Assembly (NCBI RefSeq): GCF_029946145.1
Contig: NZ_JAQSDY010000012.1
Span: 178,806 to 242,805 of the forward strand
Origin: Brevundimonas sp.
Lineage (GTDB): Bacteria; Pseudomonadota; Alphaproteobacteria; Caulobacterales; Caulobacteraceae
DNA: 64,000 bases
Direction: 5' to 3'
In this document: piece by piece, positions 28,332-63,601 of the stretch
How positions within the stretch are numbered: the stretch's first letter is position 1
Layout of the letters: every line of letters starts with the position of its first letter
Position numbers and translations under genes: made by a program
The notes under the pieces: model-generated
The model's database searches: none
The model's input: the letters and a program-made list of their open reading frames with translations, nothing else
What the model was told of the DNA's origin: nothing

Positions 28332-28334
28332 GGT

Positions 28335-31462: not shown

Positions 31463-31472
31463 CAGTGTTCTT

Positions 31473-31973: not shown

Positions 31974-31977
31974 GATC

Positions 31978-34602: not shown

Positions 34603-34603
34603 G

Positions 34604-34673
34604 TCTGGCGCCAGATTGCTACTCCTGCGCGCCATGAGCCAGAACTGGCTCCATTGAAGCGTCGCCACTGGCG
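34604..34673. promoter_or_regulatory. Three CTGG/CCAG-type inverted repeats, candidate MocR operator
   Basis: TCTGGCGCCAGA (34604-34615), GAGCCAG-AA-CTGGCTC (34636-34651), CGCCA-C-TGGCG (34663-34673), between the MocR stop and the first operon gene. Confidence 0.45.
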
Positions 34674-34744
34674 CTATGTGACGATCTCCGCCGCCGTCAC
34701 TCTCCTGTCACAGGGTCCGGGAGGATCCGTGACCGGGAGACGAC

Positions 34745-35611: not shown

Positions 35612-35705
35612 CCCAGGGGCAGGATCCAGGACGCGGCCCTGGCGCGCCGAATGCGCCAGACAGAAAAAGCACAGCAGAGTCTGTGTTCAAGGAGGGGGTT
35701 TCAGG

Positions 35706-38054: not shown

Positions 38055-38055
38055 G

Positions 38056-42808: not shown

Positions 42809-42866
42809 TTCCCACCCTCAACGCGGTCCGCAACGACCGCCCCTTGTCCTTCGCCTATCGGAGCTG

Positions 42867-45870: not shown

Positions 45871-47307
45871 CTAACCGCCGGGTGACAGAAGAACCCCGGG
45901 ATTCATGCGCCAGGACGGGTCAATGGCCGACTTGATCCGCCCGAACAGATCCAGCTCGACGGCGTCGACGACGCGATGGAACTCGTCACGCTTGTAGGTC
46001 CCGACCCCGTGTTCCGCGCTGATCGAACCACCCAAGGCAAGCGCGATGTCGTGCACGCGCGCCATGACCTCCGGAGCGTGTTTGAGGAAGGACGGCGGTT
46101 CATCGCCGGATGGCTGGATCACCGTGAAGTGGATGTTGCCATCTCCGATATGGCCGAACGACAGCGGCCGGCAGCCAGGCACGATTGTCCGCGCTACAGT
46201 GGAAGCTCGATCTATGAACTCGGGGACCGCCCCCAGCGGTACGGAAACGTCATGCTTGATGGACGCGCCCGCGCGCCGCTGCCCGTCGACGACGCCTTCG
46301 CGCAGGCGCCAGAGCTGGCTGCGTTGGCCTTCATTTTCGGCGAGCACAGCGTCGAGCGCGGCGCCCTTCGAAAGGGCCTGACCGATACCGGTCTCGAAGG
46401 CCGCCCGGAGGGAGCCCTGGTCCGCAGCTGTCGCGGCTTCGATCAGTACGTACCAAGGGAAGTCGCCCGGCAAAGGGTCCTGGGCGTCGAGAATGGCGGA
46501 AAGCGCGAGCTCCATTCCGATCCCCTCGATGAGTTCGCACGCCACGACGGCGTCGCCACAGGCCCCACGGACCTCGTTCAGAAGCGTCATGGCGGACGCC
46601 GGATCCGGCGTCGCGACAAGCGCGGTTTCGATCTGGCGCCAGGCGGGCGTCAGGCGCATCACCGCCGCCGTCACCACGCCAAGACCGCCCTCGGCGCCGA
46701 TGAAGAGCTGCTTCAGATCGTAGCCCATGTTGTGCTTGCGCAGGGCGCGCAGCCCGTTCCAGATCGAACCGTCCGGAAGGACTACCTCGAGGCCCATCAC
46801 ATTTTCGCGGCAGTTGCCGTAACGAAGGGCCCGGATGCCGCCGGCGTTGGTCGAGATGACCCCGCCGAGGGTGCAGCTTCCTTCCGCGCCCAAGCCCAGC
46901 GGAATGGCGAACCCCGCCTCGCGCGCCGCGGCCTGCAGGTCGGCGAGGACGCACCCCGCCTCGGCCGTGATCGAGGGCGTGAAGGCGTCCATAGAACGGA
47001 CGGCGGTCATGCGATCCAGGGAGAGCAGCAGGCATCTCTGCCGGCTTCTGGGGACCGACGCGCCGGTCAGCCCCGTATTGCCGCCCTGCGGAGTCACCGC
47101 GAGATCGTGCTCACAGGCCACCCGCAACAGCGAGGAGACTTCAGCCGTGGATGCGGGGCGGGCCACAGCGATCGCATCGCCCGTTTCCTTGCCCGTCCAG
47201 TCGGACAGGTAGGGAGCCATGGCGTCGGCGGCGTCCAGAAGGGCACCGGGGCTCACGCAGGCCGCGAGGGCTGCGAGCGAATCCGTGGTTGAATATTTCA
47301 TCGTCAC
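45871..47307 (-). CDS. FAD-linked oxidase (D-2-hydroxyglutarate dehydrogenase/GlcD-like)
   Basis: PQGGNTGL, TNAGG, GYDLKQLFIGAEG, HDVSVP, GHIGDGNIH, SAEHGVG. GTG 47307 overlaps the SDR stop; ATG 47301 is an alternative start. Confidence 0.9.
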   Translation of the reverse strand: MTMKYSTTDSLAALAACVSPGALLDAADAMAPYLSDWTGKETGDAIAVARPASTAEVSSLLRVACEHDLAVTPQGGNTGLTGASVPRSRQRCLLLSLDRMTAVRSMDAFTPSITAEAGCVLADLQAAAREAGFAIPLGLGAEGSCTLGGVISTNAGGIRALRYGNCRENVMGLEVVLPDGSIWNGLRALRKHNMGYDLKQLFIGAEGGLGVVTAAVMRLTPAWRQIETALVATPDPASAMTLLNEVRGACGDAVVACELIEGIGMELALSAILDAQDPLPGDFPWYVLIEAATAADQGSLRAAFETGIGQALSKGAALDAVLAENEGQRSQLWRLREGVVDGQRRAGASIKHDVSVPLGAVPEFIDRASTVARTIVPGCRPLSFGHIGDGNIHFTVIQPSGDEPPSFLKHAPEVMARVHDIALALGGSISAEHGVGTYKRDEFHRVVDAVELDLFGRIKSAIDPSWRMNPGVLLSPGG

Positions 47308-48083
47308 CTCATGACTCCGCCGCCGTCCACGACCAGCGTCTGGCCGGTCACGAACCCGCTCTCGTCGCCGGCGAAGAATGCGACCGCGCCCAGCAGATCC
47401 CGGGGCTCCTGATCGCGTGGGATGGCGCGCGCGGAGCGGGCCCGGGCCGACTGGACCTCGAGACCTTCCGCCCGGTGCAGGCGCACGCCGGAACTCAATG
47501 TGAAACCGGGCGCCACCGCGTTCACGGTGATTCCGTCGACGCCGACCTCGCGCGCCAATGCGGAGGTCATCGCCGTCACCGCCCCCTTGCTGGTGACGTA
47601 GTGAAGCATCGACGGAGGCGTCGAGAAGGCGGTCGCGGAGGTGATGTTGACGATGCGCCCGCGCCGTTGCGCTCGCATCGGAGCCAGGACGGCACGGCTG
47701 AACAGCCAGGTTCCCGTGACATTGACGTCCATGACTCGACGCCACTCCTGCGGATCGATAGCGTCGGCGGCGCCGCGGGTCAGGGTGGTGAACAGGCCGG
47801 CATTGTTCACCAGCACATCGATCCGACCGAAGCGCCTCAATGACTCCTGCACCGCGGCGTCGACGGCGGCCTGGTCCGCCACATCGGCCCGAATGCACAG
47901 GGCTTCGCCGTCCGCCCCACGAATGCGCTGGATCGCTTCGTCTGGCCAGGCGATGTCGCAAGCGGCGATCCTGTATCCGCGAGCGGCGAGATCGATCGCG
48001 ATCTCCAGTCCGATGCCTGACGCGGCTCCAGTGACCACGGCGACCGGGCTGGCGGCCTTTCGGCCGGCGTCAGAGGCGTTCAC
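47304..48083 (-). CDS. Short-chain dehydrogenase/reductase
   Basis: TGAASGIG, NNAG, YVTSK (YxxxK), TGQTLVVDGG. Confidence 0.93.
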   Translation of the reverse strand: MNASDAGRKAASPVAVVTGAASGIGLEIAIDLAARGYRIAACDIAWPDEAIQRIRGADGEALCIRADVADQAAVDAAVQESLRRFGRIDVLVNNAGLFTTLTRGAADAIDPQEWRRVMDVNVTGTWLFSRAVLAPMRAQRRGRIVNITSATAFSTPPSMLHYVTSKGAVTAMTSALAREVGVDGITVNAVAPGFTLSSGVRLHRAEGLEVQSARARSARAIPRDQEPRDLLGAVAFFAGDESGFVTGQTLVVDGGGVMR

Positions 48084-49309: not shown

Positions 49310-49318
49310 CGGCGGTTC

Positions 49319-49948
49319 CTATTCCGCGTCCGGTTGGCGATCCGGCCGGGCGTCGATGAAGGCGGGCAGGGCGGCGCAGGCGGCGTCGGCCCGCTCCAGC
49401 GACGGCCAGCGCATCTCGACCCCAAACCGTCTCGCGTTGCCGATCTGAGGGGCAAGGCAGACGTCCGCCAGGGTCGGACGGTCGCCAAAGGCGAACGGGC
49501 CGGCACGGTGCGCGATGAGGGCCTCAAGGGCGTCGAAGCCGCCCTCGATCACCGTGCGCGCCCAGGCCTGGACCTCATCTTCCGACTGATCGGACGCGGC
49601 CAGGGCTTTGAGCACCTTGAGATTCTGAAGCGGATGGATGTCGCAGGCGATAACCTGAGCGAAGGCGCGAACCTGAGCGCGTTGCACGGGATCGGCCGGG
49701 AGGAGGGGCGGCTCAGGATGCCGCTCATCCAGATATTCGCATATCGCCAGCGACTGGGTCAGGACCGAGCCGTCGTCGAGGGCGAGGCTGGGCAGGAGCC
49801 CCTGCGGATTGACGGCGAGATACTCCGGCCGGCGATGTTCGCCTTTCCGCAGGTGATGGTAGCGCCTGTCCGCCGTCAGCCCTTTCAGGTTCAGGGCGAT
49901 CCGAACGCGCCACGCCGCTGAAGAACGGAAATAGCCGTGCAGGAGCAT
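49319..49948 (-). CDS. maiA: GSH-dependent maleylpyruvate/maleylacetoacetate isomerase (zeta GST)
   Basis: YFRSSAAWRVRIAL, NPQGLLP, QSLAI, CDIHPLQNL. Confidence 0.92.
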   Translation of the reverse strand: MLLHGYFRSSAAWRVRIALNLKGLTADRRYHHLRKGEHRRPEYLAVNPQGLLPSLALDDGSVLTQSLAICEYLDERHPEPPLLPADPVQRAQVRAFAQVIACDIHPLQNLKVLKALAASDQSEDEVQAWARTVIEGGFDALEALIAHRAGPFAFGDRPTLADVCLAPQIGNARRFGVEMRWPSLERADAACAALPAFIDARPDRQPDAE

Positions 49949-49958
49949 CGTGATGTCC

Positions 49959-50651
49959 TCAGGCCGCGGGCGGGCCGATGGTGACGGTCAGCTCGCCCAG
50001 CCCGGCGATCGCGCCAACCAGCACATCGCCCTGCACGACCGCGCCGACGCCGGCGGGGGTGCCGGTGTAGATCAGGTCACCCGGCTCCAGCCGGTAGAAG
50101 CGGGACACATGGGCGATCACCTCGGGCACCGACCAGATCAGTTCGGACAGGTCGCCGGTCTGTTTGCGGTCGCCGTTCACGGTCAGGGTGATGGCGCCCT
50201 TGGAGGCGTCGATCCCGGCTGCCGGATGGATCGGGCCGAGGGGCTTGGACTGTTCGACGTTCTTGCCGGTATCCCACGGCCGGCCGGCGTCGCGGGCGAC
50301 CAGCTGGAGATCGCGGCGGGTCATGTCGAGACCGACGGCATAGCCGTAGACCAGGCTCATCGCGTCGTCAGTCGAGACCTCGCGACCTGACCTGCCGATC
50401 GCGACCACCAGTTCGATCTCGTAGTGGTAGTTGGCCGTTTCTTGCGGATAGGCGATGACGCTGCCATCCGGGACGACGGTCTCGGCCCAGGCGGTGAAGA
50501 AGAAGGGCGGTTCGCGGTCCGGGTCCCTGCCCATTTCGCGCGCGTGGGCGGCGTAGTTGCGGCCGATGCAGAAGATGCGGCGGACCGGAAACGCCTTGCC
50601 GTCCGTGGTCGGGGCGAGAACGGGCGGCTGGGGTTCGAAGGTGAGGGTCAC
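49959..50651 (-). CDS. Fumarylacetoacetate-hydrolase family, fumarylpyruvate hydrolase (NagK-like)
   Basis: RRIFCIGRNYAAHAREMG, HYEIELVV, LDMTRRDLQ, GDLIYTGTPAGVG. GTG 50651 overlaps the gtdA stop. Confidence 0.9.
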   Translation of the reverse strand: MTLTFEPQPPVLAPTTDGKAFPVRRIFCIGRNYAAHAREMGRDPDREPPFFFTAWAETVVPDGSVIAYPQETANYHYEIELVVAIGRSGREVSTDDAMSLVYGYAVGLDMTRRDLQLVARDAGRPWDTGKNVEQSKPLGPIHPAAGIDASKGAITLTVNGDRKQTGDLSELIWSVPEVIAHVSRFYRLEPGDLIYTGTPAGVGAVVQGDVLVGAIAGLGELTVTIGPPAA

Positions 50652-51703
50652 GCGTTTTCTTCCCTGAAGAGGTTCAGTTTTTCCTGGCAGGCCCGGTCCG
50701 AGTAGCCGAACAAAACCAGGGTCTCTTCGGCCTCGAAGCGCAGACTGGTCCACGACGGCACGACGACCACGTCGCGCGACGCGAGCGACATCGGCTGGTC
50801 GTCGAGCCAGGCCCGGCCGGACCCCTCGACGACGACATAGATCGTGGCGTCGGTCGAACGGCGGGTCTTTGTCGCGAAGCCCTTTGGCAACAGCCGGACG
50901 TGGGCCGAAATCGTGGGCATGATCGAGCCGCCGTCGGCGGGGTTCAGGAACTCGAGGGCATGGCCCAGGTGCGGATCGGGTTCGGCCGCGCTCGCTAGCC
51001 GGTCAAGCGCAGGCCGCCATTCCGCGTAGGGATAGTGGAACAGGGGCTGATGCGCGGGGCGACGATCGGCGGCGCTACCGCGAAGGGGGCGCAGATTGTG
51101 GCCGTATCGGCTGGATGTGTCGCCGGGCGGGACAGTCTCGGGATGCTGATCCGCGCCGAGCTTCTCGGAGAAGCTGGCGTCGAAATGGCTGACGGTTGGA
51201 ATGTCGAGGCCGTCCAGCCAGATCATCGGACCGTCGGTCGGATTGCCGTGATCGTGCCACTGACCGCCTGGCGTCAGGACTAGGTCGAAGGGCCGCATGA
51301 CGGCTTTTTCGCCGTCGATGGCCGTATAGGCGCCTTCGCCCTCCATGACGAAACGCAGCGCGCACTGGGTGTGGCGATGGCAGGGCGCGACCTCGCCCGG
51401 CAGGATGAGCTGGAGCCCGGCGTAGAGGCTGGTGGTGATCCGCGAGGCGCCGGGCAGGCCGGGGTTCTCAAGGATCAGCACGCGGCGTTCGGCCTGGGCC
51501 GCGCTGATCAGGTCGCCGGCGCGCATCAGATAGCCGCGCGCGTCGTCGTAGCGCCAACGGTGCGCGACGACCGCCGAGGTCGGCTCAGGCGTCACAAGCG
51601 AGCTGAGCACTTCCCACAGCGGCGTCAGGCTGGCCGGGCGCATTTCGTCGTAGAGCGCCTGGAGCTGGCTGGACTGTTCGTTGCTGAGGACGGCGTGCGA
51701 CAT
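50648..51703 (-). CDS. gtdA: Gentisate 1,2-dioxygenase
   Basis: PLWEVL, AERRVLILENPG, LYAGLQLILPGEVAPCHRHT, WHDH, WLDGLDIP, MPTI. Confidence 0.93.
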   Translation of the reverse strand: MSHAVLSNEQSSQLQALYDEMRPASLTPLWEVLSSLVTPEPTSAVVAHRWRYDDARGYLMRAGDLISAAQAERRVLILENPGLPGASRITTSLYAGLQLILPGEVAPCHRHTQCALRFVMEGEGAYTAIDGEKAVMRPFDLVLTPGGQWHDHGNPTDGPMIWLDGLDIPTVSHFDASFSEKLGADQHPETVPPGDTSSRYGHNLRPLRGSAADRRPAHQPLFHYPYAEWRPALDRLASAAEPDPHLGHALEFLNPADGGSIMPTISAHVRLLPKGFATKTRRSTDATIYVVVEGSGRAWLDDQPMSLASRDVVVVPSWTSLRFEAEETLVLFGYSDRACQEKLNLFREENA

Positions 51704-51715
51704 GATCCGATCCGG

Positions 51716-53011
51716 TCAGATTTCGATGACGATGCGGTCGTCAATCGCCTTCACCCCGCCGATGCCCATGGCGTCGCAATAGGCGTCCCAGACCTGGGCC
51801 GGCTGTCCCGCCTGGAACATGAAGCGCTCCAGGTGTTTGCTCATCACAGGGTGCGCCCGATAGGTGTCGAGAGAAACTCCTTCGATCAGCAGGTCGCGCT
51901 CGGCGATCGGCAGGGATACGAAGGCGGCGACCTCGGGGTCGCGAATGACGCCCTTGGGGTCCTCGCCGTTTTCCACCGCGTCCATGTCGGTCATCAGCTG
52001 TTTGCGCAGCATCTGGATGCCGCGGTCGCTCAGGCCCAGCTTTTCCTTGGTGCGGTCGGCGACGACGCCCTGACCGACCCAGGCGATGAAGTCCTGGTTG
52101 ATCACATGGGTGCTGATCCAGCGGCCGGTTTCAGGGTCCTTGATCGGGCCGTGCCAGGTCGGGATGGTTTCCTGCACATAGGGCTCGGCGTCGTTCGGAA
52201 CCCGCGTATAGACCCACGAGATGCTGAGCGTGTTCTCATCGTCGATCGGCACGCGCCATTCGAAGTGATCGCCCAGGAAGAAGCAGTTGGGCAGCAGGCA
52301 GACGCGACCCACGGTCCACATCGAATGGTCCTCGGGCAAATCCTCGCGCTGGCGGCGGTAGATCAGTCCGTATTCGAACTCGTCGAACGCGACCTGCAGG
52401 TGTTTCGGACCCAGCTCGGCCATGGCGTCCGTCTGGCGCCGCGACCAGTTGGTGTGCATCCACTCGAAGTGGACCGGATCGATCGAGTTCTCCTGGCATT
52501 GCAGCCAGTTGCAGGGGATTTCGGAGATGATGATCTGGGTGAAGCCATTGGCCCAGGTGAAGGGCTCCCAGTTCGGCAGCTCAGGGGCCGGCAGGGGCCC
52601 CATATAGGTCCACAGCATGCCGGCGTGTTCGCGCACCGGATAGGCGGTGATCCGCACCTTGTCCTTGTACTTGGCGCGGGCGGCGACGGTGTCCTCGTAG
52701 GGCATTTCCACGCACTGGCCGGTCTCGTTGTAGGCCCAGCCGTGATAGTTGCAGCGCAGGCCGCACTTCTCCACGAAGCCGTACGACAGGTCGGCGCGGC
52801 GGTGGGCGCAGGCGCGCTGGACGAGGCCGTATTGTCCGGACAGGTCGCGATAAAGGACCAGGTCCTCGCCCATCAGGCGGATCGCCTTGATGCGGGTCTT
52901 GTCGTCGAACTCGGTGGCGCCGGCGATGGGAGTCCAGTGCCGGCGCAGCACGGCGCCCATGCGCGTGCCGGGGCCGACCCTGGTAAGCATTTCGTTGGTT
53001 TCAGCGTCCAA
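51716..53011 (-). CDS. ligXa: Rieske non-heme iron oxygenase, phthalate/VanA clade, LigXa (DDVA O-demethylase)-like
   Basis: Rieske CAH...CNYH, Fe site ENSIDPVHFEWMH, NQD. Long stretches (GEDLVLYRDLSG, KYKDKVRITAYPVR, GPLPAPELPNWEPF, DAEPYVQETIPTWHGPIKD) match my recollection of Sphingobium SYK-6 LigXa. Confidence 0.85.
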   Translation of the reverse strand: MDAETNEMLTRVGPGTRMGAVLRRHWTPIAGATEFDDKTRIKAIRLMGEDLVLYRDLSGQYGLVQRACAHRRADLSYGFVEKCGLRCNYHGWAYNETGQCVEMPYEDTVAARAKYKDKVRITAYPVREHAGMLWTYMGPLPAPELPNWEPFTWANGFTQIIISEIPCNWLQCQENSIDPVHFEWMHTNWSRRQTDAMAELGPKHLQVAFDEFEYGLIYRRQREDLPEDHSMWTVGRVCLLPNCFFLGDHFEWRVPIDDENTLSISWVYTRVPNDAEPYVQETIPTWHGPIKDPETGRWISTHVINQDFIAWVGQGVVADRTKEKLGLSDRGIQMLRKQLMTDMDAVENGEDPKGVIRDPEVAAFVSLPIAERDLLIEGVSLDTYRAHPVMSKHLERFMFQAGQPAQVWDAYCDAMGIGGVKAIDDRIVIEI

Positions 53012-53025
53012 AGCCAGGCTCCCTG

Positions 53026-54261
53026 TTACTTGGCAGCAGCCAGATCAACGGTGAATCCGGCCACGCGCTTGTAGTTCTCCGACAACAGGCGGAGTTCGTC
53101 ATGTGTGATGTAGTCGTCCAGGTTCTCGAAGGGTCGGTCGCCCGTCAGTTCCTCAACGCGCAGATTGATGATGTCGGGCGGAGCCGTACGGTTCGTCTGT
53201 ACGATCCGGGCGGTGGGTTCCAGCCTCGCGGCCTCATAGGCGATGAGCGCCTGTTGAGGATCGCCGCCGGCGGCCAGGAGGTCGGCCAAGGTCCGCGCGT
53301 CGATAAGGCCTTGGGCGGAACCGTTCGAGCCCCGGGGATACATAGGGTGGGCGGCGTCGCCGGCCAGGGTCACGCGGCCGAAGGTCCATCGCTCGAGCGG
53401 ATCCTTGTCCACCATCGGATACTCCAGCAGCGTGTCGGCGCTGCGGATCAGGTCGCCGACGTCCAGCCAGTCGAACCGCCAGCCCTCGTAAGTCGGCAGG
53501 AAGTCTTCCAGGCGGCCGCCCCGGTTCCAGTCGTTCATCGTCGAGGTCGGCCGTTCGATCTCGGCGACCCAGTTGATCAGTTGATTGCCTTCGCCGTCGA
53601 CGTCGTCGGTGATGGGATAGATCACGATCTTCCCGGTCCGGATCGAACCGATCCGGAAATAGGTGCGCCCGTCCAGGATGGGCTTGCGGCGCGTCACGCC
53701 CCGCCAGGTGTTTATGCCCGTGAAGACGACCTTGTCGTCGGGATAGAAGACCTTGCGGGTCGCCGAGTTGACCCCGTCGCAACCGATCGCGATGTCAGCC
53801 CGAGCCGGCGGCAATGCGGAACCGGTGGACGTCTCCGTGAACTGCAGGGTCACACCGGCGTCGTCCTGGCTCAGGCCGGCAAGCGTCCTGTCCGTGAGGA
53901 CGCGGTCCTGGCCGAGGCGGGCAAGCGCTTCCCGGTACAGCACCGAATGCAGCTTGCCGCGGTTGATCGCGACCTCGGGCAGGTCGTACCCGGCTGCGAC
54001 GCCGCGAGGCTCGCTGTAAAGCTTTTGACCGAAGCGATTGTAGAACTCGCTGGTGCGGGTTTCGACGCCGCTGGACCGGATGGCGTCCTGCAGACCCAGG
54101 GCGGCGATCTCGCGCATGGCGTGGGGCAACAGGGTGATGCCGACCCCGATCTCGCGGACTTGGCGCGCGGCCTCGAAGACCCGGCTTTCAATACCGCGCT
54201 GATGCAGACCGATGGCCAGCGCCAGCCCCGCGATTCCGCCGCCGATAATCGCGATCTCCAC
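53026..54261 (-). CDS. Group A flavin monooxygenase, PhzS/salicylate-hydroxylase-like clade
   Basis: GGGIAG, SEPRGVAAGY, NRGKL, CDGVNS, GDAAHPMYPRGSNG. GTG 54261 has a GGAGG SD. Confidence 0.88.
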   Translation of the reverse strand: MEIAIIGGGIAGLALAIGLHQRGIESRVFEAARQVREIGVGITLLPHAMREIAALGLQDAIRSSGVETRTSEFYNRFGQKLYSEPRGVAAGYDLPEVAINRGKLHSVLYREALARLGQDRVLTDRTLAGLSQDDAGVTLQFTETSTGSALPPARADIAIGCDGVNSATRKVFYPDDKVVFTGINTWRGVTRRKPILDGRTYFRIGSIRTGKIVIYPITDDVDGEGNQLINWVAEIERPTSTMNDWNRGGRLEDFLPTYEGWRFDWLDVGDLIRSADTLLEYPMVDKDPLERWTFGRVTLAGDAAHPMYPRGSNGSAQGLIDARTLADLLAAGGDPQQALIAYEAARLEPTARIVQTNRTAPPDIINLRVEELTGDRPFENLDDYITHDELRLLSENYKRVAGFTVDLAAAK

Positions 54262-54324: not shown

Positions 54325-54353
54325 GTCATACCAATGGAAAGACGTCTGTTCAA
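54325..54353 (-). promoter_or_regulatory. Sigma70 promoter TTGAAC-N17-TATGAC overlapped by operator AGACGTCTG (54336-54351)
   Basis: Direct reading of the minus strand upstream of the monooxygenase-ligXa-gtdA operon. Confidence 0.75.
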
Positions 54354-54507
54354 TTGCCCTTTCAAAAAAATGCGGCCGCCCGGAATCCGCCCCATGAAGG
54401 GTTCTCATTTTATGGTGCTAGAATCCTCGCGTTATCAGCAATTTTGTGTGCCGGAGCTGCATATGAGCCTCCGCCGAAAATCGGACTAGCCCTCGAAGTT
54501 CGCGGAA

Positions 54508-54523
54508 TGTAATACGTCTGATT
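54508..54523. promoter_or_regulatory. Operator copy TGTAATACGTCTGATT upstream of the RraA/LigK-like gene
   Basis: The right 10 nt are identical to the perfect palindrome at 63611-63626. Confidence 0.6.
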
Positions 54524-54589: not shown

Positions 54590-55264
54590 ATGTCCCCATC
54601 GGCAGAAACCATCACCGAAGCGCGCCGGCTCGGAACCGCGACGTTGCACGAGGCCGCGGGGCGCATTGGCGCGCTCCCCTCCGTGATCAAGCCGGTTGAT
54701 CCGGCCATGACACTGGCGGGACCTGCCTTCACCGTGCACTGCCCGGCGCTGTCCAACCTGCAGATCCACCACGCGCTCTACCACGCGCAACCGGGAGACA
54801 TCCTGGTGGTCCATGTCAGCGGAGGCGTGGAAGCGGGCTATTGGGGCGACATCCTGAACGAGGCGGCTCTGGCGCGGGGCTTGGGCGGCCTGGTGATCGA
54901 CGGCGGCGTTCGAGACAGCGCGGGCCTGACGAAGATGGCCTTCCCGGTCTTTTCCAATGGCATCTGCATCCGCGGCACGGGCAAGGACTATGACGCCACG
55001 GCATGGCTGCAACAGCCGGTGCGGATGGGTGAGGTGCTGATCCAGCCCGGCGACCTGATCGTCGGCGACCGGGACGGCGTCTTCGCCCTGTCCATGGCGC
55101 GGGCTGAGGAGGTGGTCGAAGCCGGACAGCGACGTGAAGCGGACGAGACCGCCAAGATCGCGGCCATTCGGCGAGGAGAGCGGACCCTGGATCTTTATGG
55201 TTTTGCGAAGGGAGCGCCGACGGAGATCGCCGCGGGCCTGCCGTTCACGGGGCGCACACGCTGA
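54590..55264 (+). CDS. RraA-family HMG/CHA aldolase (LigK/GalC-like), paralogue 1
   Basis: GTATLHEA, LAGPAFTV, GYWGDIL, IDGGVRD, GDLIVGDRDGV. Confidence 0.9.
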   Translation: MSPSAETITEARRLGTATLHEAAGRIGALPSVIKPVDPAMTLAGPAFTVHCPALSNLQIHHALYHAQPGDILVVHVSGGVEAGYWGDILNEAALARGLGGLVIDGGVRDSAGLTKMAFPVFSNGICIRGTGKDYDATAWLQQPVRMGEVLIQPGDLIVGDRDGVFALSMARAEEVVEAGQRREADETAKIAAIRRGERTLDLYGFAKGAPTEIAAGLPFTGRTR

Positions 55265-55276: not shown

Positions 55277-55777
55277 TCAGTCGTCGTCGAGGACGATGGG
55301 CGCGCGGGTCACGCCGTTGAAGCGGTCCACGAACTTCCCCAGCAGGCGCAGGAACTCCGCTCCTTCTTCCGGCGTGAAGGCCGACAGCGCGCGCTCCTGA
55401 GCGGTCCGCGCGGCGTGACGCAGGTTCTCCAGCTTCCTCTCGCCCTTGCCGGTCAGGACGATGACCTTGCGGCGACGGTCGGCGCGGTCCTCGACTCTCA
55501 CGATCAGGCCTTCGCTTTCGAGGCGCTTGACCACGAGGCCGGTGGTCGACCGGTCCAGCCCGACCTTCTTCGACAGGCCGATCTGGTCCAGGTCCTCGCA
55601 GCACCGGAGGATCACCAGGACGCCGTACTGGGTCGTCGTGACGTTGAACTCGGCGCTCTCTTCCATGAACAGCGAGACGCTGATCTGGTGCGCCCGGCGC
55701 AGCAGGAAGCCGGGGCGTTTGTAGAGTGCGTCGACGCTGTTGATGTCGGATGCGCTTGTCGCGGAACGTGCAGGCAA
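55277..55777 (-). CDS. MarR-family regulator (start uncertain; TTG 55777 chosen)
   Basis: PGFLLRRAHQ, TTTQYGVL, GLDRST...RLESEGLIVR...DRR. Confidence 0.88.
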   Translation of the reverse strand: MPARSATSASDINSVDALYKRPGFLLRRAHQISVSLFMEESAEFNVTTTQYGVLVILRCCEDLDQIGLSKKVGLDRSTTGLVVKRLESEGLIVRVEDRADRRRKVIVLTGKGERKLENLRHAARTAQERALSAFTPEEGAEFLRLLGKFVDRFNGVTRAPIVLDDD

Positions 55778-55889
55778 GTCGGAGCCCCGGTTTCTCGAAC
55801 TCGCGCCAGATAGACGCTTCGATTCAAGGCGATCAGTACACTGCGTCTGTGACACTGTCGAATGCGGCGAGGCGGCGCGGGGACGGCCT

Positions 55890-57281
55890 TCAGGGTTCGA
55901 CATGGACGATCTCCGTCGGCCCCAGGGCTCTCTGGCGGGCCCCTCTGAACAGATTGACAAGGGAGAAGCCGGCCGAGGTCAGGGCGAGACCCGCCGCGGC
56001 GAAGGCGGGCGTCGGCCCGGCTCCGAACGCGGTGGCGAGGAGGGCCGAAGCCATCGCCGCGCCCAGCGCCTGTCCGACGAAACGCGTGGCCGAGACGAGC
56101 GCGCCTGCGGACGCCGCCCGATCGCGGGGAGCCGCGCCGATGATCAGGTGGGCGGTGGGGGCCATGAACAGGCCGAAGCCGACGCCGCCCAGCGCCATCG
56201 GGATCGCCAGAACGGCGACGCCGCTGTCAGGAGAAAGGATGCCGGCGGTCGCCAGTCCGGTCGCCGCCAGGATCATCCCGATCGCGCCGGGCAGGCCCCT
56301 GGGCGCGCGATCGGCCAACAGACCCGCGACAGGTGCGGCGATCATCATCGCCAAGGGCCAGACCGCCAGCACGAGCCCGATCTCGGCCGGCTGAAGGCCT
56401 GCGGTCTGCAGGCGGAAGGGCAGGGCCACCATGAAGGCCACCGAGGCCGAGAAGGCGAACAGCGCCGCCGCGGCGGGCAGGGCGAAGGTCGCGCGCGCCA
56501 GAAGATCCACCGGCAGTATGGGACGCGCCGATCGCATCTCGCGCCGCACGAAAATGATGGCGACGGGAATTCCCACGGCGACCAGGGCCGCGCCGATCGG
56601 GCCGTCGCCGTGCAGCAGCAGGCTGAGACCGCTCATCAGCAGGCCGAACATCAAGGCGCAGAGGAGGGCGCCGGCTGCATCGAACCGGTCGCTGTGCGCC
56701 TTGGGGTCGGGAAGAACCTGGCCCAGGGCCAGCGAGAGCAGGGCGAAGGGGGTGGCGGCCGCGAACACCCAGCGCCACGACCCCGCGCCGAGAATCAGCC
56801 CGCCGAGGCTGGGGGCCGCCGCGGCCGCCACGGCGATGACCAGGCTGTTGAACGCCATACCTCGCCCGAGCCTGGCCGAGGGATAGGTCGCACGCAGGAG
56901 CGCGGAGCTGACGCTCAGGGCCGCCGCGACGCCCAGCGCCTGAAGGCAACGCGTGGCCAGAAGCATGGGCAGATTGGTCGCCAGCGCGCTGCCCAGGCTG
57001 GCGATCAGGAAGACCAGCTGTCCCGACTGATACATGCGCCGATGCCCGACCCGATCCCCCAGGGCGGAGAAGGGCAGCAGCGCCATCAGCATGGCGACCT
57101 GGTAGACCGTGACGACCACCACGGCGCTGGCGGAGGAGATGCTCAGCGCGCGCGCGATCGTGGGCAGGGCGACCGTGGCGATCGCGTTGTCGACGACCAG
57201 CATACCGGTGCCCAGCGACAAGGCCAGGACGGCGACGTGCCGTCGCGGCGCCGTCAGGCCCACATGCGTCTCAGCCGTCAC
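55890..57281 (-). CDS. MFS transporter (DHA2/EmrB-QacA-like)
   Basis: DNAIATVALPTI, motif A LGDRVGHRR, RCLQALG, PSLGG, WRWVF; about 14 TMs. Confidence 0.88.
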   Translation of the reverse strand: MTAETHVGLTAPRRHVAVLALSLGTGMLVVDNAIATVALPTIARALSISSASAVVVVTVYQVAMLMALLPFSALGDRVGHRRMYQSGQLVFLIASLGSALATNLPMLLATRCLQALGVAAALSVSSALLRATYPSARLGRGMAFNSLVIAVAAAAAPSLGGLILGAGSWRWVFAAATPFALLSLALGQVLPDPKAHSDRFDAAGALLCALMFGLLMSGLSLLLHGDGPIGAALVAVGIPVAIIFVRREMRSARPILPVDLLARATFALPAAAALFAFSASVAFMVALPFRLQTAGLQPAEIGLVLAVWPLAMMIAAPVAGLLADRAPRGLPGAIGMILAATGLATAGILSPDSGVAVLAIPMALGGVGFGLFMAPTAHLIIGAAPRDRAASAGALVSATRFVGQALGAAMASALLATAFGAGPTPAFAAAGLALTSAGFSLVNLFRGARQRALGPTEIVHVEP

Positions 57282-59011
57282 TCGGATATGATGTTCAGCA
57301 GAACCTGTCGCCGATCCTCGCGGACCATGCGGATGGCGCGTCGGATCGCGTCGGGAACGGCGGCCGGATCCTCGATGCGTTCGCCGTAGCCGCCGGACGC
57401 TTCGACGTACTTCTCGAAGTCGGGGATGGGGCGCAGATCGCTGAGCGGAGCCGGTTTGGGTCCGCGCGCCGCATGGCCTTCGGGGAAGACGCCGATGGTC
57501 GAGGATTGCACCGCGCCCCAGCGGGCGTTGTTGCAGATGATCGTCAGCAGGGGCGTCTCATGCATCGCGATGGCCTGGTGGCAGGCCGCGGGATTGCAGA
57601 ACAGATATGCGCCGTCGCCCATGGTGCAGACGACCGGCCGGTCGGGGGCGGCGAGGGCGGCGCCGATGGCGGCGGGCATGCCCCAGCCAAGGCCTGCCGC
57701 CGGAGAGTGCATGTAGAAGCTGCCGGCCGTTTTCGCGTCGAATATCTCGCGGTCGACCCAGTACTCGTTCACGACGATCGCGTCGGCGGGAAGCGCCTCG
57801 TTGAGGCAGAGGTTCAGCCAGTCCTTGTTCATTCGCGGGGTGTCGGCCAGCGGGGCGAGACGTTTGCGCCGACGCTCCCGCCGACCTTCGGCAAGCGTGG
57901 CGATCTTCGCCGCCCGGTCAGAGAGGCGTTTTTCCTCCACGATCTCGGCTAGGGCCTCGGTCAGCGGTCCCAACAACTGGCCGGCGGAGCTCGTGACCCA
58001 CAGCTCGCCGCGGAAGGACCGCAGCGGATAGTCGAGGAACAGCGGATCGACGCCCACATGGACGATCCGGGTCTCCGCCCGGGGCTCCCGCGTTTCCGGC
58101 AGCCAGGGCACCTCAGTCTCCAGACAGATCAGCAGATCGGCCTCGCCGAGATACGGATGCACCGACTGGCCGAGGTGATAGGGATGATCGGACGAGGCGC
58201 AGACATACCGGGACTTGGCCTCCACGATGCCGATGCCGAATCGTTCGCAGAGCTCGCCTAGCGGCGCGACGGTTTCCGGGTCGCGACCCGAGGCAGACGT
58301 CACCAGCAGTGGGCATTTGGCGGCGTCGATCATCTCCGCTAGCTTCCGGATTGCTTCGGGATCCGGAGCGGCGCGGCTGGTCGGAGCCAGCGGCTTGGCC
58401 TCGACGGTGTGGGGTTCGGACTGCGCCGACAGCACCTCGCGCGGGAGGGTCAGATAGACCGGTCCGGCGGGCGCGGCCTGGGCGGTCATCAGTCCGCGAT
58501 CAAGGACGTCCTCGAGGTTCAGGCCTGAACGCAGTTCGTAGTCCCACTTGACCAGTTCGCGCAGCATACCGGCCTGGTCGTACATTTCCTGCGCCCAGTG
58601 GATCGCGCCGCTGCGGGCGCCCAAGGGACCCTTCTCGTAGAGAGGCGTGCGGCCGGCCATGAACAGCATGGGTATTTCGTCGCGCTTGGCGTTCATCACG
58701 CCGCAGACGGCGTTGGCGGCCCCCACGCTGACGTGAACCATGACCGCCTGCGTCCGACCCGTGATCATGGTGTAGCCATGGGCCATGCCGACGACGAGAT
58801 TCTCGTGCGTGCCAATGATCGGCGCCGGGAAGTCGAGGTGGGAGAGCGACTGGCGAGCGTAGGCCTCAGCGATCGGGGCCGCGTCCGTGCCACTGTTGAT
58901 GAAGAGGTAGTCGACGCCCTTCTGTTTCAGCAGCGCCAGGAAGGTTTCCGCGACGGCTTCGGATTGCGGCAGAACTTGCGTGTCGCGCCGTTCCTTGGAC
59001 TGTACGGGCAT
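57278..59011 (-). CDS. Thiamine-diphosphate-dependent enzyme (decarboxylase/lyase superfamily)
   Basis: THENL (catalytic Glu), GDGAY...NN ThDP/Mg motif, GLGWG. ATG 59011 has a GGAGG SD. Confidence 0.9.
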   Translation of the reverse strand: MPVQSKERRDTQVLPQSEAVAETFLALLKQKGVDYLFINSGTDAAPIAEAYARQSLSHLDFPAPIIGTHENLVVGMAHGYTMITGRTQAVMVHVSVGAANAVCGVMNAKRDEIPMLFMAGRTPLYEKGPLGARSGAIHWAQEMYDQAGMLRELVKWDYELRSGLNLEDVLDRGLMTAQAAPAGPVYLTLPREVLSAQSEPHTVEAKPLAPTSRAAPDPEAIRKLAEMIDAAKCPLLVTSASGRDPETVAPLGELCERFGIGIVEAKSRYVCASSDHPYHLGQSVHPYLGEADLLICLETEVPWLPETREPRAETRIVHVGVDPLFLDYPLRSFRGELWVTSSAGQLLGPLTEALAEIVEEKRLSDRAAKIATLAEGRRERRRKRLAPLADTPRMNKDWLNLCLNEALPADAIVVNEYWVDREIFDAKTAGSFYMHSPAAGLGWGMPAAIGAALAAPDRPVVCTMGDGAYLFCNPAACHQAIAMHETPLLTIICNNARWGAVQSSTIGVFPEGHAARGPKPAPLSDLRPIPDFEKYVEASGGYGERIEDPAAVPDAIRRAIRMVREDRRQVLLNIISE

Positions 59012-59207: not shown

Positions 59208-60212
59208 ATGATCATCGATTGCCATGGCCACGTCAGCGCTCCCGCGGAACTGTGGGCCTACAAGGCGTCGGTGCTGTCGCATCGGGGCTCCCATGGTCGA
59301 GGCGGCGTCCGCGTCTCCGACGATGACATCCGTCGCGCCGTCAACAAGGTCGAAATGGCGCCCTGCGGCCACCTCGACATGCTGGAGCGCCATGGCACCG
59401 ACCTGCAGCTGATTTCCCCGCGTCCCTTCCAGATGATGTCCAGCTTCGAGCCGGGCCGGGTGGTCCACTGGTTCGTGGAAGAGTGCAACACGATCATCCA
59501 TCGCCAGACGCAGCTGTTCCCGGACAAGTTCGTCGGCGTCTGCGGGCTGCCCCAGGTGGCGGGCGAGCCGATAGAGAATACCTTCGCGGAACTGGATCGC
59601 TGCATCGGCCTGGGCTTCAAAGGCTGCCTGCTGAACCCCGACCCATATGAAAATACGCGGACTGACCAGCCGGGCCTCGGCGATCGCTACTGGTATCCGC
59701 TCTACGAGAAGCTCTGCGAACTGGATATTCCAGCGCACATACACGCGACGGGGTCGCGGTCAGACCGGACGCCCTACAGCCTGCACTTCATCAATGAGGA
59801 GACGATCGCCGTCTTCAACCTCGTGAACTCCAGCGTGCTGGACGACTTCCCCTCGCTGAAGATCGTGGTCAGCCACGGCGGCGGCGCCATACCCTATCAG
59901 CTGGGCCGGTTCGAGGCAGGTTCGATCCATCCGGGATCAAAGCGCCGGTTCTCAGAGGGGATGCGCAAGCTCTACTACGACACAGTGCTCTACACCGAGG
60001 GCGCGCTGCGGTTGCTGATCGAGACGGTCGGCGTGGACCGGTGTCTGTTCGGGTCGGAATGCCCGGGCGTAGGCTCCAAGGTCGTGGACGGTCACGACCA
60101 CACCATGGACCACATCGCACCGACCATCGCGAAGTTCGATTTCCTGAGCGACGCCGACAAGAAGAAGATCTTCGAGGACAACGCCCGCGCCGTCTTCCGG
60201 CTGGACCAGTAG
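59208..60212 (+). CDS. ligY: Amidohydrolase-superfamily meta-cleavage compound hydrolase, LigY-like
   Basis: MIIDCHGHVSAP..LWAYKAS..HRGSHGRGG, ISPRPFQMM, LPQVAGEPIEN, PYSLHFINEETIA, SHGGGAIPYQLGRFE, LFGSECPGVG match my recollection of SYK-6 LigY throughout. Confidence 0.85.
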   Translation: MIIDCHGHVSAPAELWAYKASVLSHRGSHGRGGVRVSDDDIRRAVNKVEMAPCGHLDMLERHGTDLQLISPRPFQMMSSFEPGRVVHWFVEECNTIIHRQTQLFPDKFVGVCGLPQVAGEPIENTFAELDRCIGLGFKGCLLNPDPYENTRTDQPGLGDRYWYPLYEKLCELDIPAHIHATGSRSDRTPYSLHFINEETIAVFNLVNSSVLDDFPSLKIVVSHGGGAIPYQLGRFEAGSIHPGSKRRFSEGMRKLYYDTVLYTEGALRLLIETVGVDRCLFGSECPGVGSKVVDGHDHTMDHIAPTIAKFDFLSDADKKKIFEDNARAVFRLDQ

Positions 60213-60221
60213 GGGGCCCTG

Positions 60222-61250
60222 ATGGCCGAGATCGTTCTGGGCGCCTGGACCACACACGGGCCAACTCTTTCGACGACGCCCGAAGAGTGGCTGCTGCGCC
60301 TGCCCGCCGACAAGGCGCGCAAGGACCACCCGTTCCGGGGGGCAACCTATGACTTTCCCGCCCTCGTCGAACTGCGCAAAGACGAGGACCTGGCCGCCCA
60401 GGCGACCCTGGAAGAGCGCACCCGGCGGTCGCTCCTCTGTCGCGCCGCCATCGATCGGCTGGCGGACATCTATGAGAAAGCTCGCGTCGATGTGGCGGTC
60501 ATCTTCGGCAACGATCAGCACGAAATCTTTCTGGATGACCTCATCCCGGCCCTGACCGTCTTCAACGGCGAGACCATCTGGAACGCCCCGGCGACCGAGG
60601 CGCAGGCCGCCATATCGCCACCGGGCATCCACGTATCGGAGTGGGGGCATAAGCCGCCTCAGTACACCGAATATCCCGGCCACCCCGAGCTGGCCAATCG
60701 CATCATCCGGCAGGCCATCGCAGACGGATTCGACGTGGCCAAGTCGTCGAAGCTGCCCGAGAATCCGGGTAATTGGCATAGCGGTATCGGGCACGCCTTC
60801 GGCTTCATCTATCGCCAGATCATGCGCGACAAGCCGGTCGCCAACGTTCCGTTGTTCGCCAACACCTTCTTCCCGCCCAACCAGCCGACGGCGCGGCGGT
60901 GTTTCGCTTTCGGCCAGGCGGTCGGCCGGGCGATCCGCGCCTGGGACTCCGATGCTCGCGTCGCGGTTTTCGGGTCGGGCGGCATGACGCATTTCGTCAT
61001 CGACGAGGCCTTCGACGCCAAGATCATCGACGCGATCCAGGCTCGCGATGCCGAAACACTCTGCTCCATCGGCGAGGAATACTTCCAGGCGGGAACCTCC
61101 GAGCTGAAGAACTGGATCGCGGCTGCGGGCTGTCTCTTCGAGACCGACCTGAGCGGCGATCTGGTCGATTATGTGCCCTGCTATCGCTCGGAGGCGGGGA
61201 CCGGCACGGCCAACGGCTGGATTGCGTGGAACAAGAAGGCGGGAGCATGA
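60222..61250 (+). CDS. ligZ: Class III (LigB-fold) extradiol dioxygenase, LigZ-like
   Basis: MAEIVLG..THGP, GNDQ, HAFGFIYRQIMRD, PPNQPT.RRC, SGGMTHFVIDE, FQAGTSELKNWI, YVPCYRSEAGTG match my recollection of SYK-6 LigZ; no LigA-type subunit nearby. Confidence 0.85.
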   Translation: MAEIVLGAWTTHGPTLSTTPEEWLLRLPADKARKDHPFRGATYDFPALVELRKDEDLAAQATLEERTRRSLLCRAAIDRLADIYEKARVDVAVIFGNDQHEIFLDDLIPALTVFNGETIWNAPATEAQAAISPPGIHVSEWGHKPPQYTEYPGHPELANRIIRQAIADGFDVAKSSKLPENPGNWHSGIGHAFGFIYRQIMRDKPVANVPLFANTFFPPNQPTARRCFAFGQAVGRAIRAWDSDARVAVFGSGGMTHFVIDEAFDAKIIDAIQARDAETLCSIGEEYFQAGTSELKNWIAAAGCLFETDLSGDLVDYVPCYRSEAGTGTANGWIAWNKKAGA

Positions 61251-61909: not shown

Positions 61910-61910
61910 T

Positions 61911-62566: not shown

Positions 62567-63601
62567 ATGGCCTGGCGGGTCGTCGCAACAGCGAGCCTGG
62601 GCCCACACGAGGGCGTGATCGCGCGCCTGGTTGAGGCGGGCTGCGAGATCGACCGGCTGCCGGCCGCCGCCACGACGTGGACTCCCGAACTGATCGCCCG
62701 CTACGCCTCCACCGCCGACGCCTATGTCGGAACCTTCCGGGGGATCGGACTGCCCCGCGAGGTGATCGAGGCCTCGCCCCGGGCCCGCGTGATCACCTCG
62801 CCGATCATCGGCACCGAATATATCGACGTCAAAGCGGCGACCGAGGCGGGCGTTCTGGTCGCACACGGGGCCATGTCAGAGAATTTCGACGGCATGGCCG
62901 AGGCCGGCGTCATGCTGATCGCCGCGACCCGCAAGGCGCTGGCCGGCAAGACCGCCGCCGTAAGGGCGGGAGAATGGAAGACCGCTCCGGCGGGCCGCCT
63001 GGTGCTGGAATCCACCATCGGCATCCTGGGCCTGGGCCGGATCGGGCAGGGGGTCGCGCGCCGGCTGAACGGCTGGGACTGCGAGATCATCGCCTGCGAC
63101 CCCTATGTCGATCCCGCGGCGGCGGCGAAGCTGGATGTGGAGCTGGTCGGCATCGACGACCTGTTCCGCCGGTCGGATGTCGTGGTCATCCTTGTGACCC
63201 TGACGCCGGAGACACGGCACATCGTCAACGCCGACAGGATCGCCGCGATGAAGCGCGGAAGCGCCATCGTCAACATCGGCCGGGGCGGGTGCATGGACGA
63301 GGCAGCGGTTATCGCCGCGCTCGACTCCGGCCAGCTCGCGGCGGTCGCCATCGACGCCTGGGAGTCCGAACCGCCGGCGCCCGACAATGCGCTGCGCAGC
63401 CATCCGGCGGTCATCGCCACCTCGCACGACGTCGGCCATTCCACGGACCTGTACGCCCGTATTCCGGTCGTGGCCGCCGAGAACACCCTGGCCGCGCTCG
63501 AGGGGCGGCGGCCCGACTACCTGCATAACCCGGCGGCGTTGCCGGCCTGGCGCGAACGCTGGAACGACGCGCCCCAACCCGCCGCAGCCGGAGCCTTATG
63601 A
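62567..63601 (+). CDS. D-isomer-specific 2-hydroxyacid dehydrogenase family
   Basis: GILGLGRIG, DPY, VNIGRG (Arg), DAWESEP (Glu), TSHDVG (His). Confidence 0.88.
   Translation: MAWRVVATASLGPHEGVIARLVEAGCEIDRLPAAATTWTPELIARYASTADAYVGTFRGIGLPREVIEASPRARVITSPIIGTEYIDVKAATEAGVLVAHGAMSENFDGMAEAGVMLIAATRKALAGKTAAVRAGEWKTAPAGRLVLESTIGILGLGRIGQGVARRLNGWDCEIIACDPYVDPAAAAKLDVELVGIDDLFRRSDVVVILVTLTPETRHIVNADRIAAMKRGSAIVNIGRGGCMDEAAVIAALDSGQLAAVAIDAWESEPPAPDNALRSHPAVIATSHDVGHSTDLYARIPVVAAENTLAALEGRRPDYLHNPAALPAWRERWNDAPQPAAAGAL

Follow-up and report, generated by a model that had tools for sequence, protein, structure and literature searches.

How is 5-carboxyvanillate consumed where the genes that would release it from 5,5'-dehydrodivanillate (DDVA) lie beside a flavin monooxygenase and a set of gentisate-cleavage genes, and where no LigW-type decarboxylase is in view? 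The question is raised by a stretch of 64,000 nt from Brevundimonas sp. (contig NZ_JAQSDY010000012.1, positions 178,806 to 242,805 of the forward strand; hereafter the window), which has an overall G+C content of ~69%. Its minus-strand run at 45871-54261 starts with a gene for a PhzS-like monooxygenase (MO), followed by ligXa and the genes for gentisate cleavage, and ligY and ligZ lie ~5 kb away from this MO-gentisate operon. A first-pass annotation of positions 49319-54261 had proposed that the monooxygenase and the gentisate pathway stand in place of LigW. In our reading, to which a probability of roughly 45% is assigned, the whole island would be a catabolic unit for DDVA-type (5-5 linked) lignin fragments, in which 5-carboxyvanillate is converted through para oxidative decarboxylation to a (methoxy/hydroxy)gentisate that is then cleaved by a gentisate 1,2-dioxygenase (GDO).

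Open reading frames (ORFs) of the window were picked by GC3 guidance and named through family-profile scans (NCBIfam and Pfam). For comparison, 80 genome loci around LigY homologues (among the matches listed) and 80 metagenome loci around MO homologues were sampled, and additional loci were taken from contigs on which a close relative of LigXa, LigY or MO is encoded; numbers preceded by L denote these loci. A SYK-6-like locus (L163), whose LigY (P0180) is 90% identical to the SYK-6 LigY read from the PDB alignment, was used as the reference for the DDVA genes. The island MO set was defined by an identity of at least 70% to the MO of the window, and 12 such loci were inspected. The genes of the operon and its promoter-like element are as follows.

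53026..54261, minus strand: PhzS-like group A flavin monooxygenase (MO) of 411 aa, family PRK07538, first gene of the operon
51716..53011, minus strand: Rieske oxygenase of the LigXa family (oxygenase component of an O-demethylase), assigned from its identity to LigXa and its iron motifs
50648..51703, minus strand: gentisate 1,2-dioxygenase (GDO), TIGR02272
49959..50651, minus strand: FAA-hydrolase-family protein (FAH) of 230 aa, PF01557, a probable (substituted) fumarylpyruvate hydrolase
49319..49948, minus strand: MaiA, glutathione-dependent maleylpyruvate/maleylacetoacetate isomerase, TIGR01262
48080..49309, minus strand: ferredoxin-NAD(+) reductase, candidate electron donor of LigXa (LigXd role), from HcaD/AndAa-type models and domains
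47304..48083, minus strand: SDR oxidoreductase, from the family scan
45871..47301, minus strand: FAD-linked oxidase (GlcD-like) with FAD_binding_4 and FAD-oxidase_C domains, final gene in the run
54325..54353, minus strand: promoter-like TTGAAC-N17-TATGAC, containing the palindrome AGACGTCT (54340-54347)

The gene content and order given by the first-pass annotation (monooxygenase, ligXa, gtdA, a NagK-like gene and maiA) agree with this list, and the run is longer than it had claimed. The intergenic spacers from MO through LigXa, GDO, FAH and MaiA to the reductase are 14, 12, -4, 10 and 9 nt, and because the tight minus-strand run carries on past MaiA through the ferredoxin reductase, the SDR and the FAD-linked oxidase, the operon probably has eight genes, not five. 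Terminator-like sites on the minus strand were not found within 45871-54261. The GTGA start of the FAH gene overlaps the stop codon of the GDO gene, and the SDR and reductase genes are translationally coupled, with the GTGA of the former overlapping the stop of the latter. The reductase scores 300-327 bits against the HcaD/AndAa-type models, contains Pyr_redox_2 and Reductase_C domains and is kept in L081 and L083; the FAD-linked oxidase is kept in L081, from which the SDR gene is absent. The likely start of MO, judged by the ribosome-binding site GAAGGAGG located 5 nt upstream, is the GTG at 54261, where the region of the first-pass annotation also ended. The promoter-like element is kept upstream of the MO gene in six loci (the window, L081, L083, L084, L164 and L167), and a second site related to AGACGTCT is present at 54505-54523. 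AGAC-N(0-4)-GTCT palindromes are conserved in the promoter region between MO and a divergent LigK-like gene, with one of them between the -35 and -10 hexamers, and these are likely to be operators of the adjacent MarR-family regulator.

The first enzyme of the operon passes the NCBIfam model PRK07538 (NF005720) with 526 bits against a cutoff of 400, over residues 13-418 of the maximal ORF, and its closest solved relative is PhzS (2rgj) with an E value of 1.5e-76 and 38.7% identity, so that the earlier description of it as a PhzS-like monooxygenase holds. Its FAD/NAD(P)H fingerprints are intact (GGGIAG at residue 7, DGVNS at 162 and GDAAH at 301 of the 411-aa protein). It remains under the equivalog cutoffs for 3-hydroxybenzoate 6-hydroxylase (3HB6H; NF006021, 148 against 459) and for salicylate 1-monooxygenase (TIGR03219, 106 against 446). 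Family scans of the 64 kb found no phenazine (phz) genes, and MO, at 38.7% identity, is thus not PhzS proper. The island MOs form one clade inside a larger MO family in the neighbour-joining tree, and a basal member of this family is encoded in L114 in a GDO-FAH-MO operon, which makes it plausible that the product of the MO family is a GDO substrate.

The second enzyme of the operon is 58% identical (75% positives) to the LigXa orthologue of L163 across its full length (417 residues aligned), and this supports the name ligXa used by the first-pass annotation. Its metal ligands are found in CAH at residue 68 and CNYH at 87 (Rieske CXH/CXXH) and in DPVHFEWMH at 178 (DxxHxxxxH). By neighbour joining, the LigXa partners of the island MOs form one clade that is sister to the SYK-6-type and other ligY-linked LigXa proteins. 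A second Rieske type occurs beside ligY/ligZ (L016 8701-9966, L013 4540-5817, L005 7650-8870 and L012 2122-3339) in beta- and gammaproteobacteria and actinobacteria, with Rudaea, Paraburkholderia and Cupriavidus among the genera; this type matches Pfam LigXa_C over its full length, is ~34% identical to the LigXa of L163 and 25-34% identical to the Rieske protein of the window, and is likely to be a non-orthologous DDVA O-demethylase. The match of the window protein to LigXa_C covers only 54 residues, and the possibility that it is not a true LigXa was considered; it was rejected because the LigXa of L163 is 58% identical to the window protein as opposed to 34% to the other type. The SYK-6 type of LigXa itself matches LigXa_C over only ~50 residues.

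The gentisate-cleavage genes are of familiar kinds. GDO scores 539 bits against TIGR02272 (cutoff 442) and 335 bits against the E. coli GDO 2d40, and has the bicupin histidine motifs HRH at residue 109 and HDH at 150, while MaiA scores 264 bits against TIGR01262 (cutoff 171). The FAH gene, located between those of GDO and MaiA, gives 193 bits with PF01557 and passes no specific curated model; its orthologue in L081 likewise has 230 aa. Some GDOs tolerate 3-substituted gentisates. Direct cleavage by GDO of 5-carboxyvanillate, itself a 5-substituted salicylate, was considered as well and set aside, as the GDO is canonical, the product would be unsuited to the conserved MaiA and FAH, and MO would be left without a role.

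Upstream of the operon, the island continues with the following genes.

54590..55264, plus strand: LigK-like RraA-family aldolase / oxaloacetate decarboxylase, PRK09262, divergent from the MO gene
55277..55960, minus strand: MarR-family regulator, from the family scan (maximal ORF; probable true start 55777 or 55855)
55890..57203, minus strand: DHA2-type MFS transporter, from the family scan
57278..59011, minus strand: thiamine-diphosphate enzyme, family PRK08327, 607 bits against a cutoff of 456
59208..60212, plus strand: LigY, PDB 5vn5/6e6i
60222..61250, plus strand: LigZ-like LigB-type extradiol dioxygenase, from its LigB domain and its identity to L163
61247-61909 and 61911-62564, plus strand: two RraA-like genes, from their identity to the L163 pair
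62567..63601, plus strand: D-2-hydroxyacid dehydrogenase, from the family scan
from ~63690, plus strand: aldehyde dehydrogenase, from the family scan, running past the end of the window

LigY aligns with the crystallised SYK-6 LigY (PDB 5vn5/6e6i) at an E value of 5e-170 and 568 bits and is 74% identical to the LigY of L163 (tblastn), and the LigZ-like dioxygenase is 60.5% identical to the LigZ orthologue of that locus. The gene order of L163 (ligZ, RraA, RraA, ligY and then ligXa on the opposite strand) is that of SYK-6. The RraA-like pair of the window (61247-62564) is 60-61% identical to the pair that stands between ligZ and ligY in L163 (8662-9989), and such a pair, often with a third, LigK-like gene, is found alongside ligZ/ligY in nearly every lineage (most of the LigY loci L002-L061); these proteins probably convert CHPD, which is the C6 product of LigY, to pyruvate. 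The LigK-like protein divergent from MO scores 177 bits with PRK09262, slightly under the cutoff of 179, and in 9 related loci its gene adjoins that of MO. The SYK-6-like locus has an MFS gene as well, to which that of the window is not orthologous. The PRK08327 gene is kept beside LigY or MO in L001, L081, L083, L084 and L169. Relatives of it with 36-41% identity adjoin MO homologues in six metagenome loci in which these stand as orphans (L085, L101, L116, L126, L129 and L131), and further sites of the family are at L166 7982-9733 and L017 12813.

The linkage of these genes recurs. In 11 of the 12 island-MO loci the LigXa gene is adjacent to that of MO, with MO almost always directly upstream. 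GDO, FAH and GST genes are complete in nine, and two more are truncated contigs, one of them with the GST gene and a partial FAH gene. LigY is encoded within 10 kb in seven, and in three the genes of MO and LigY are divergent neighbours. At least four gene orders were distinguished among these loci: the Brevundimonas type (the window, L081, L083 and L084); that of Polymorphobacter megasporae (L082), where MO is beside ligY and LigXa is 8 kb off; that of L165, where LigY, LigZ and three RraA genes diverge from MO-LigXa and an IclR gene precedes the rearranged gentisate genes; and the separate order of L168. A 'type II' order is seen in L164 (a Bordetella metagenome-assembled genome, MAG), L167 (B. 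vesicularis CP118634), L170 and L171, with neighbours that encode a FerA-like ADP-forming acyl-CoA synthetase, an enoyl-CoA hydratase, two acyl-CoA dehydrogenases, MarR and IclR regulators, a TonB receptor and a ferredoxin. The linkage thus spans several taxa and bacterial orders (Brevundimonas, Polymorphobacter, the Bordetella MAG and other metagenome contigs), the MO and LigXa clades co-vary in the neighbour-joining trees, and many further homologues of MO, LigXa and LigY have longest contigs of identical length, taken here as a proxy for sharing a contig.

A convergent case was found in L012, a Pseudomonadota MAG, in which a run of genes in one direction encodes a Rieske oxygenase of the other type, an ABC transporter, LigZ, LigY, an FAA-family hydrolase, a GDO-like bicupin (under the GDO cutoff with 214 bits on TIGR02272), a TctC receptor and a flavin monooxygenase. 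The last of these is 3HB6H-like and shares only 30% identity with the MO of the window. The same trio of hydrolase, GDO-like protein and monooxygenase is encoded in L008 (Paraburkholderia sp. LEh10), 3 kb downstream of ligY. These trios of two betaproteobacterial loci (L012 11033-15081 and L008 14018-17072) are not orthologous to the genes of the window, so that the same three classes of enzyme have been recruited beside LigY twice, in sets unrelated to each other. We consider it probable that the linkage of MO, LigXa, the gentisate genes and LigY-LigZ is functionally meaningful.

A gentisate pathway for ordinary substrates that merely shares the island with the biphenyl genes is one alternative. 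In that case, 3-hydroxybenzoate, salicylate or 4-hydroxyisophthalate would enter through an unusual hydroxylase, and a LigW encoded elsewhere would decarboxylate 5-carboxyvanillate to vanillate. The canonical GDO, MaiA and FAH suit such a pathway, as do the large size of the MO family, which is mostly unlinked to lignin genes, and the lack of distinctive substitutions in the island MOs, and LigW is normally unlinked to ligY (PMC12997858). Set against this are the position of the LigXa gene inside the operon between MO and GDO, the recurrence of the linkage in loci that differ in gene order and come from different bacterial orders, where the clades of MO and LigXa co-vary, the convergent trios of L008 and L012, and the distance of MO from the 3HB6H and salicylate hydroxylase cutoffs. 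We regard an ordinary gentisate pathway as unlikely, although it deserves serious weight.

The chemistry of the preferred reading starts from what a GDO needs, which is a carboxyl ortho to a phenolic hydroxyl and a second hydroxyl para to that hydroxyl. 5-Carboxyvanillate is 4-hydroxy-5-methoxyisophthalate, in which the ortho carboxyl is present and a second carboxyl is exactly para, and replacing the para carboxyl by a hydroxyl gives 2,5-dihydroxy-3-methoxybenzoate, which is 3-methoxygentisate. PhzS catalyses decarboxylative hydroxylation. Among the expected lignin-derived monomers, the ortho carboxyl of the GDO type would mark the 5-carboxy-guaiacyl compounds, and 5-carboxyvanillate appears to be the obvious lignin-derived compound one para oxidative decarboxylation away from a gentisate. 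It is from this fit that we infer the substrate of MO and the para regiochemistry of its reaction. In the proposed route, LigXa with the reductase encoded downstream would O-demethylate the biphenyl, LigZ would open the catechol ring, and LigY would release 5-carboxyvanillate together with a C6 acid that the RraA-like proteins would carry to pyruvate. MO would then hydroxylate 5-carboxyvanillate para to the phenol, with that carboxyl leaving as CO2, and the ring of the resulting 3-methoxygentisate would be cleaved by GDO, the product isomerised by MaiA and hydrolysed by the FAA-family hydrolase to pyruvate and a methoxy-C4 diacid. This scheme seems the simplest that uses every conserved gene, and the retention of MaiA would fit a ring-fission product whose double bond is locked in cis, as that of an enol ether would be.

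The proposed route might replace LigW or might only supplement it. That the only amidohydrolase of the island is LigY-like was claimed by the first-pass annotation and is true of the whole window, as phmmer (E <= 1e-3) and tblastn with an ACMSD/LigW-like query found no second amidohydrolase-2 (LigW-type) gene in the 64 kb besides LigY. Family scans of the 64 kb likewise found no vanillate demethylase and no protocatechuate dioxygenase. An actual replacement of LigW is not established by this, since at least 70 of the 80 ligY loci are likewise without a neighbouring second amidohydrolase-2 gene. L017 has the one amidohydrolase-2 gene found adjacent to ligY; it is ACMSD-like and not clearly a LigW.

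A number of observations weigh against the proposed route. With no second amidohydrolase-2 gene within 10 kb in those 70 or more of the 80 ligY loci, LigW is seldom encoded beside ligY, so its absence from the window means little, and a LigW may be encoded elsewhere in this genome; in SYK-6, a distance of ten genes separates ligW from ligY, and ligW2 lies far off (PMC12997858). The 38.7% identity to PhzS is, in this class of enzymes, too low to transfer a reaction type on sequence. MO homologues with 63-68% identity are abundant in metagenomes of soil and freshwater, in dozens of loci that lack LigXa, GDO and LigY, and the surroundings of 78 such 'orphan' loci had no shared catabolic context, their neighbours being ECF sigma factors, AhpD-like genes, DUF1080 and efflux genes. 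Island and orphan MOs have 130 invariant positions in common and differ in ~8 semi-diagnostic positions, mostly conservatively; with so few and weak differences there is no visible sign of a new specificity of MO, and either the whole MO family would perform such chemistry or the island MO would have no special specificity. Electron supply and product disposal add two further difficulties: the window has no ferredoxin for LigXa, with the reductase alone in the operon (a Fer2 gene is near the module in the relatives L165 and L167), and none of the island enzymes is an obvious disposer of methoxyfumarate or methoxymaleate. LigY and LigZ are not encoded within 10 kb in the type II loci L164, L167, L170 and L171 or in L169. 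The residues that separate island from orphan MOs had been considered as an argument for specificity in their own right, and this was dropped with only ~8 weak positions at hand.

The type II modules could receive 5-carboxyvanillate from elsewhere, for example from 5-carboxyferulate or a diferulate through the FerA/FerB-like genes, or their LigXa clade could demethylate the monomer and not the biphenyl. The second of these leads to a different order of steps, and hence to a different timing of the loss of the methyl group, in which the LigXa-clade oxygenase would also or only demethylate 5-carboxyvanillate or 3-methoxygentisate, GDO would cleave 2,3,5-trihydroxybenzoate to pyruvate and oxaloacetate, and the LigK-like oxaloacetate decarboxylase would finish the pathway. 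The adjacency of MO and LigXa (11/12) is tighter than their linkage to LigY/LigZ (7/12), the type II modules carry MO, LigXa, GDO, FAH, GST and an RraA-like gene with no LigY/LigZ nearby, the LigK-like gene is a constant divergent neighbour of the MO gene, and a dead-end methoxy-C4 acid would be avoided, all of which accords with monomer demethylation. However, the Rieske protein is a LigXa orthologue (58%) and the sole Rieske oxygenase near the LigZ/LigY of these islands, which would leave the demethylation of DDVA without an enzyme unless it is bifunctional, and the conserved MaiA would be needless for a 3-hydroxy ring-fission product that tautomerises freely. This order of steps is improbable in our estimate, though it is to be kept in mind.

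MO could also act earlier, on the biphenyl, so that its place before or after biphenyl cleavage would change. It would then replace the carboxyl of the surviving ring in DDVA or OH-DDVA, and LigY would free 3-methoxygentisate directly with no 5-carboxyvanillate formed. The near-obligate adjacency and co-evolution of MO and LigXa fit this, each ring of DDVA has a carboxyl in the position para to the phenol, and the end product would be that of the route via 5-carboxyvanillate, with GDO needed as before. Yet the identity of LigY (74%) and LigZ (60%) to the SYK-6-type enzymes speaks for dicarboxylated substrates of the usual kind, and the orphan MO homologues have no biphenyl genes nearby; we think such early action quite improbable.

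The para position of the reaction can be questioned too, as MO might remove the ortho carboxyl in the manner of salicylate hydroxylase or HipH and give 3-O-methylgallate for meta cleavage of the protocatechuate/gallate type, with the gentisate genes serving some other purpose. HipH converts 4-hydroxyisophthalate to protocatechuate in this way, as cited in PMC13599478, and the island is rich in RraA/LigK-like aldolases of the 4,5-cleavage type. But a dioxygenase for 3-O-methylgallate, gallate or protocatechuate is not encoded in the window, nor is LigI or LigJ, its sole LigB-type enzyme is LigZ-like, and the conserved GDO-FAH-MaiA trio would be left unexplained, making ortho removal very improbable indeed.

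On balance, the proposal of the first-pass annotation that 5-carboxyvanillate is ipso-hydroxylated to 3-methoxygentisate draws on the enzyme identities, the co-transcription of LigXa, the recurrent linkage, the convergent trios and the simplicity of the chemistry, and is weakened by the orphan MOs and by the modules without LigY/LigZ; in that exact form it is held somewhat less probable than the general scheme put at about 45% above. Extended to other bacteria, it can be suggested tentatively that some Alpha- and Betaproteobacteria (Brevundimonas, Polymorphobacter and a Bordetella-like MAG) degrade 5-carboxyvanillate, to which 5-5 and beta-5 lignin dimers both lead, through oxidative para decarboxylation by a PhzS-like enzyme to 3-methoxy- or 3-hydroxygentisate and gentisate-type cleavage to pyruvate and a C4 acid, bypassing LigW.

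5-Carboxyvanillate is a bottleneck monomer of the condensed (5-5 and beta-5) lignin units and is also present in oxidatively depolymerised kraft lignin. If the route is true, a second funnel would exist that is independent of the first and requires neither a vanillate O-demethylase nor the protocatechuate pathway, as vanillate, its tetrahydrofolate- or VanAB-type demethylation and protocatechuate would all be skipped. The very large family of PhzS-like 'flavin-dependent oxidoreductases', so far unnamed, would gain a physiological role, and five to six genes would be at hand as a compact set with which to engineer strains that convert lignin.

Other parts of the window were annotated from the same scans. 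A dense run of amino-acid biosynthesis genes, nearly all on the minus strand with thrC on the plus strand, occupies 12993-30239 and comprises proA-/proB-like genes, thrC, a homoserine-kinase-like APH gene, an aspartokinase-homoserine dehydrogenase fusion, leuB, leuD, leuC, ilvE, a leuA-like gene, ilvB, ilvC and ilvD. It is divided from a MocR/PdxR-like regulator gene by a stretch at 30240-32460 with a G+C content of ~62% (against 69%) and a weak coding signal, where only a GST-like ORF (30809-31462) is found. Genes at 32464-45655 encode the MocR-type regulator, a nitrilase/amidase-family protein, a TonB-dependent receptor, a TPR protein, an MFS-like protein, a GABA transaminase, a succinate-semialdehyde dehydrogenase and a 723-aa protein without a family match in the scans; together they may serve to take up and catabolise an amino or amide compound.

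Compared with known systems, the upper part of the island resembles the DDVA pathway of Sphingobium (Parasphingobium) lignivorans SYK-6 (LigXa/Xc/Xd, LigZ, LigY and LigW/LigW2; PMC6874591; PMC12997858), with which it shares LigXa, LigZ, LigY, the RraA pair, a MarR regulator and an MFS transporter. It differs in that its window encodes no LigW-type decarboxylase and in that its LigXa gene is embedded in an operon with genes for a flavin monooxygenase and for gentisate cleavage, both of which are missing from the SYK-6-like locus. The described consumers of 5-carboxyvanillate are only the decarboxylases LigW and LigW2 (PMC12997858; bioRxiv 10.64898/2026.08.18.745639), with no others given in a review and a preprint of 2026, and full-text searches of the library at hand found no paper that ties 5-carboxyvanillate to gentisate or PhzS to gentisate, names 3-methoxygentisate, or gives 5-carboxyvanillate a fate other than LigW. 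With PhzS, the 5-methylphenazine-1-carboxylate 1-monooxygenase of P. aeruginosa (PDB 2rgj/3c96), MO shares the subfamily PRK07538 and all FAD/NADH motifs, while its context is one of aromatic-acid catabolism with no phenazine genes, and its proposed substrate is a hydroxy-isophthalate.

Replacement of a carboxyl by a hydroxyl is described for the group A flavoenzymes 4-hydroxybenzoate and vanillate 1-hydroxylase, HpaM and NicC (bioRxiv 10.1101/171595; PMC6692525). These para-decarboxylating hydroxylases are of the FAD_binding_3 class like MO and perform the type of reaction proposed here, and the relationship of MO to vanillate 1-hydroxylase (PDB 8x38) and NicC is distant (80-84 bits). HipH acts on the unmethoxylated analogue of 5-carboxyvanillate and takes the other (ortho) carboxyl. 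To our knowledge, no enzyme of this group has been described as supplying a gentisate dioxygenase with substrate from a lignin biphenyl. The lower part of the island resembles the classical gentisate operons (NagI/K/L type; E. coli O157 GDO 2d40) in its equivalog-level GDO and MaiA, in having an FAA-family hydrolase and in its arrangement. In contrast to gentisate modules fed by 3-hydroxybenzoate 6-hydroxylase, its hydroxylase is not a 3HB6H, LigXa is encoded inside the operon, and the substrate expected is a 3-methoxy- or 3-hydroxy-substituted gentisate. What is new is therefore the junction, a PhzS-like hydroxylase that joins an upper part of the SYK-6 DDVA type to a textbook gentisate lower part, with LigXa co-transcribed with the gentisate genes.

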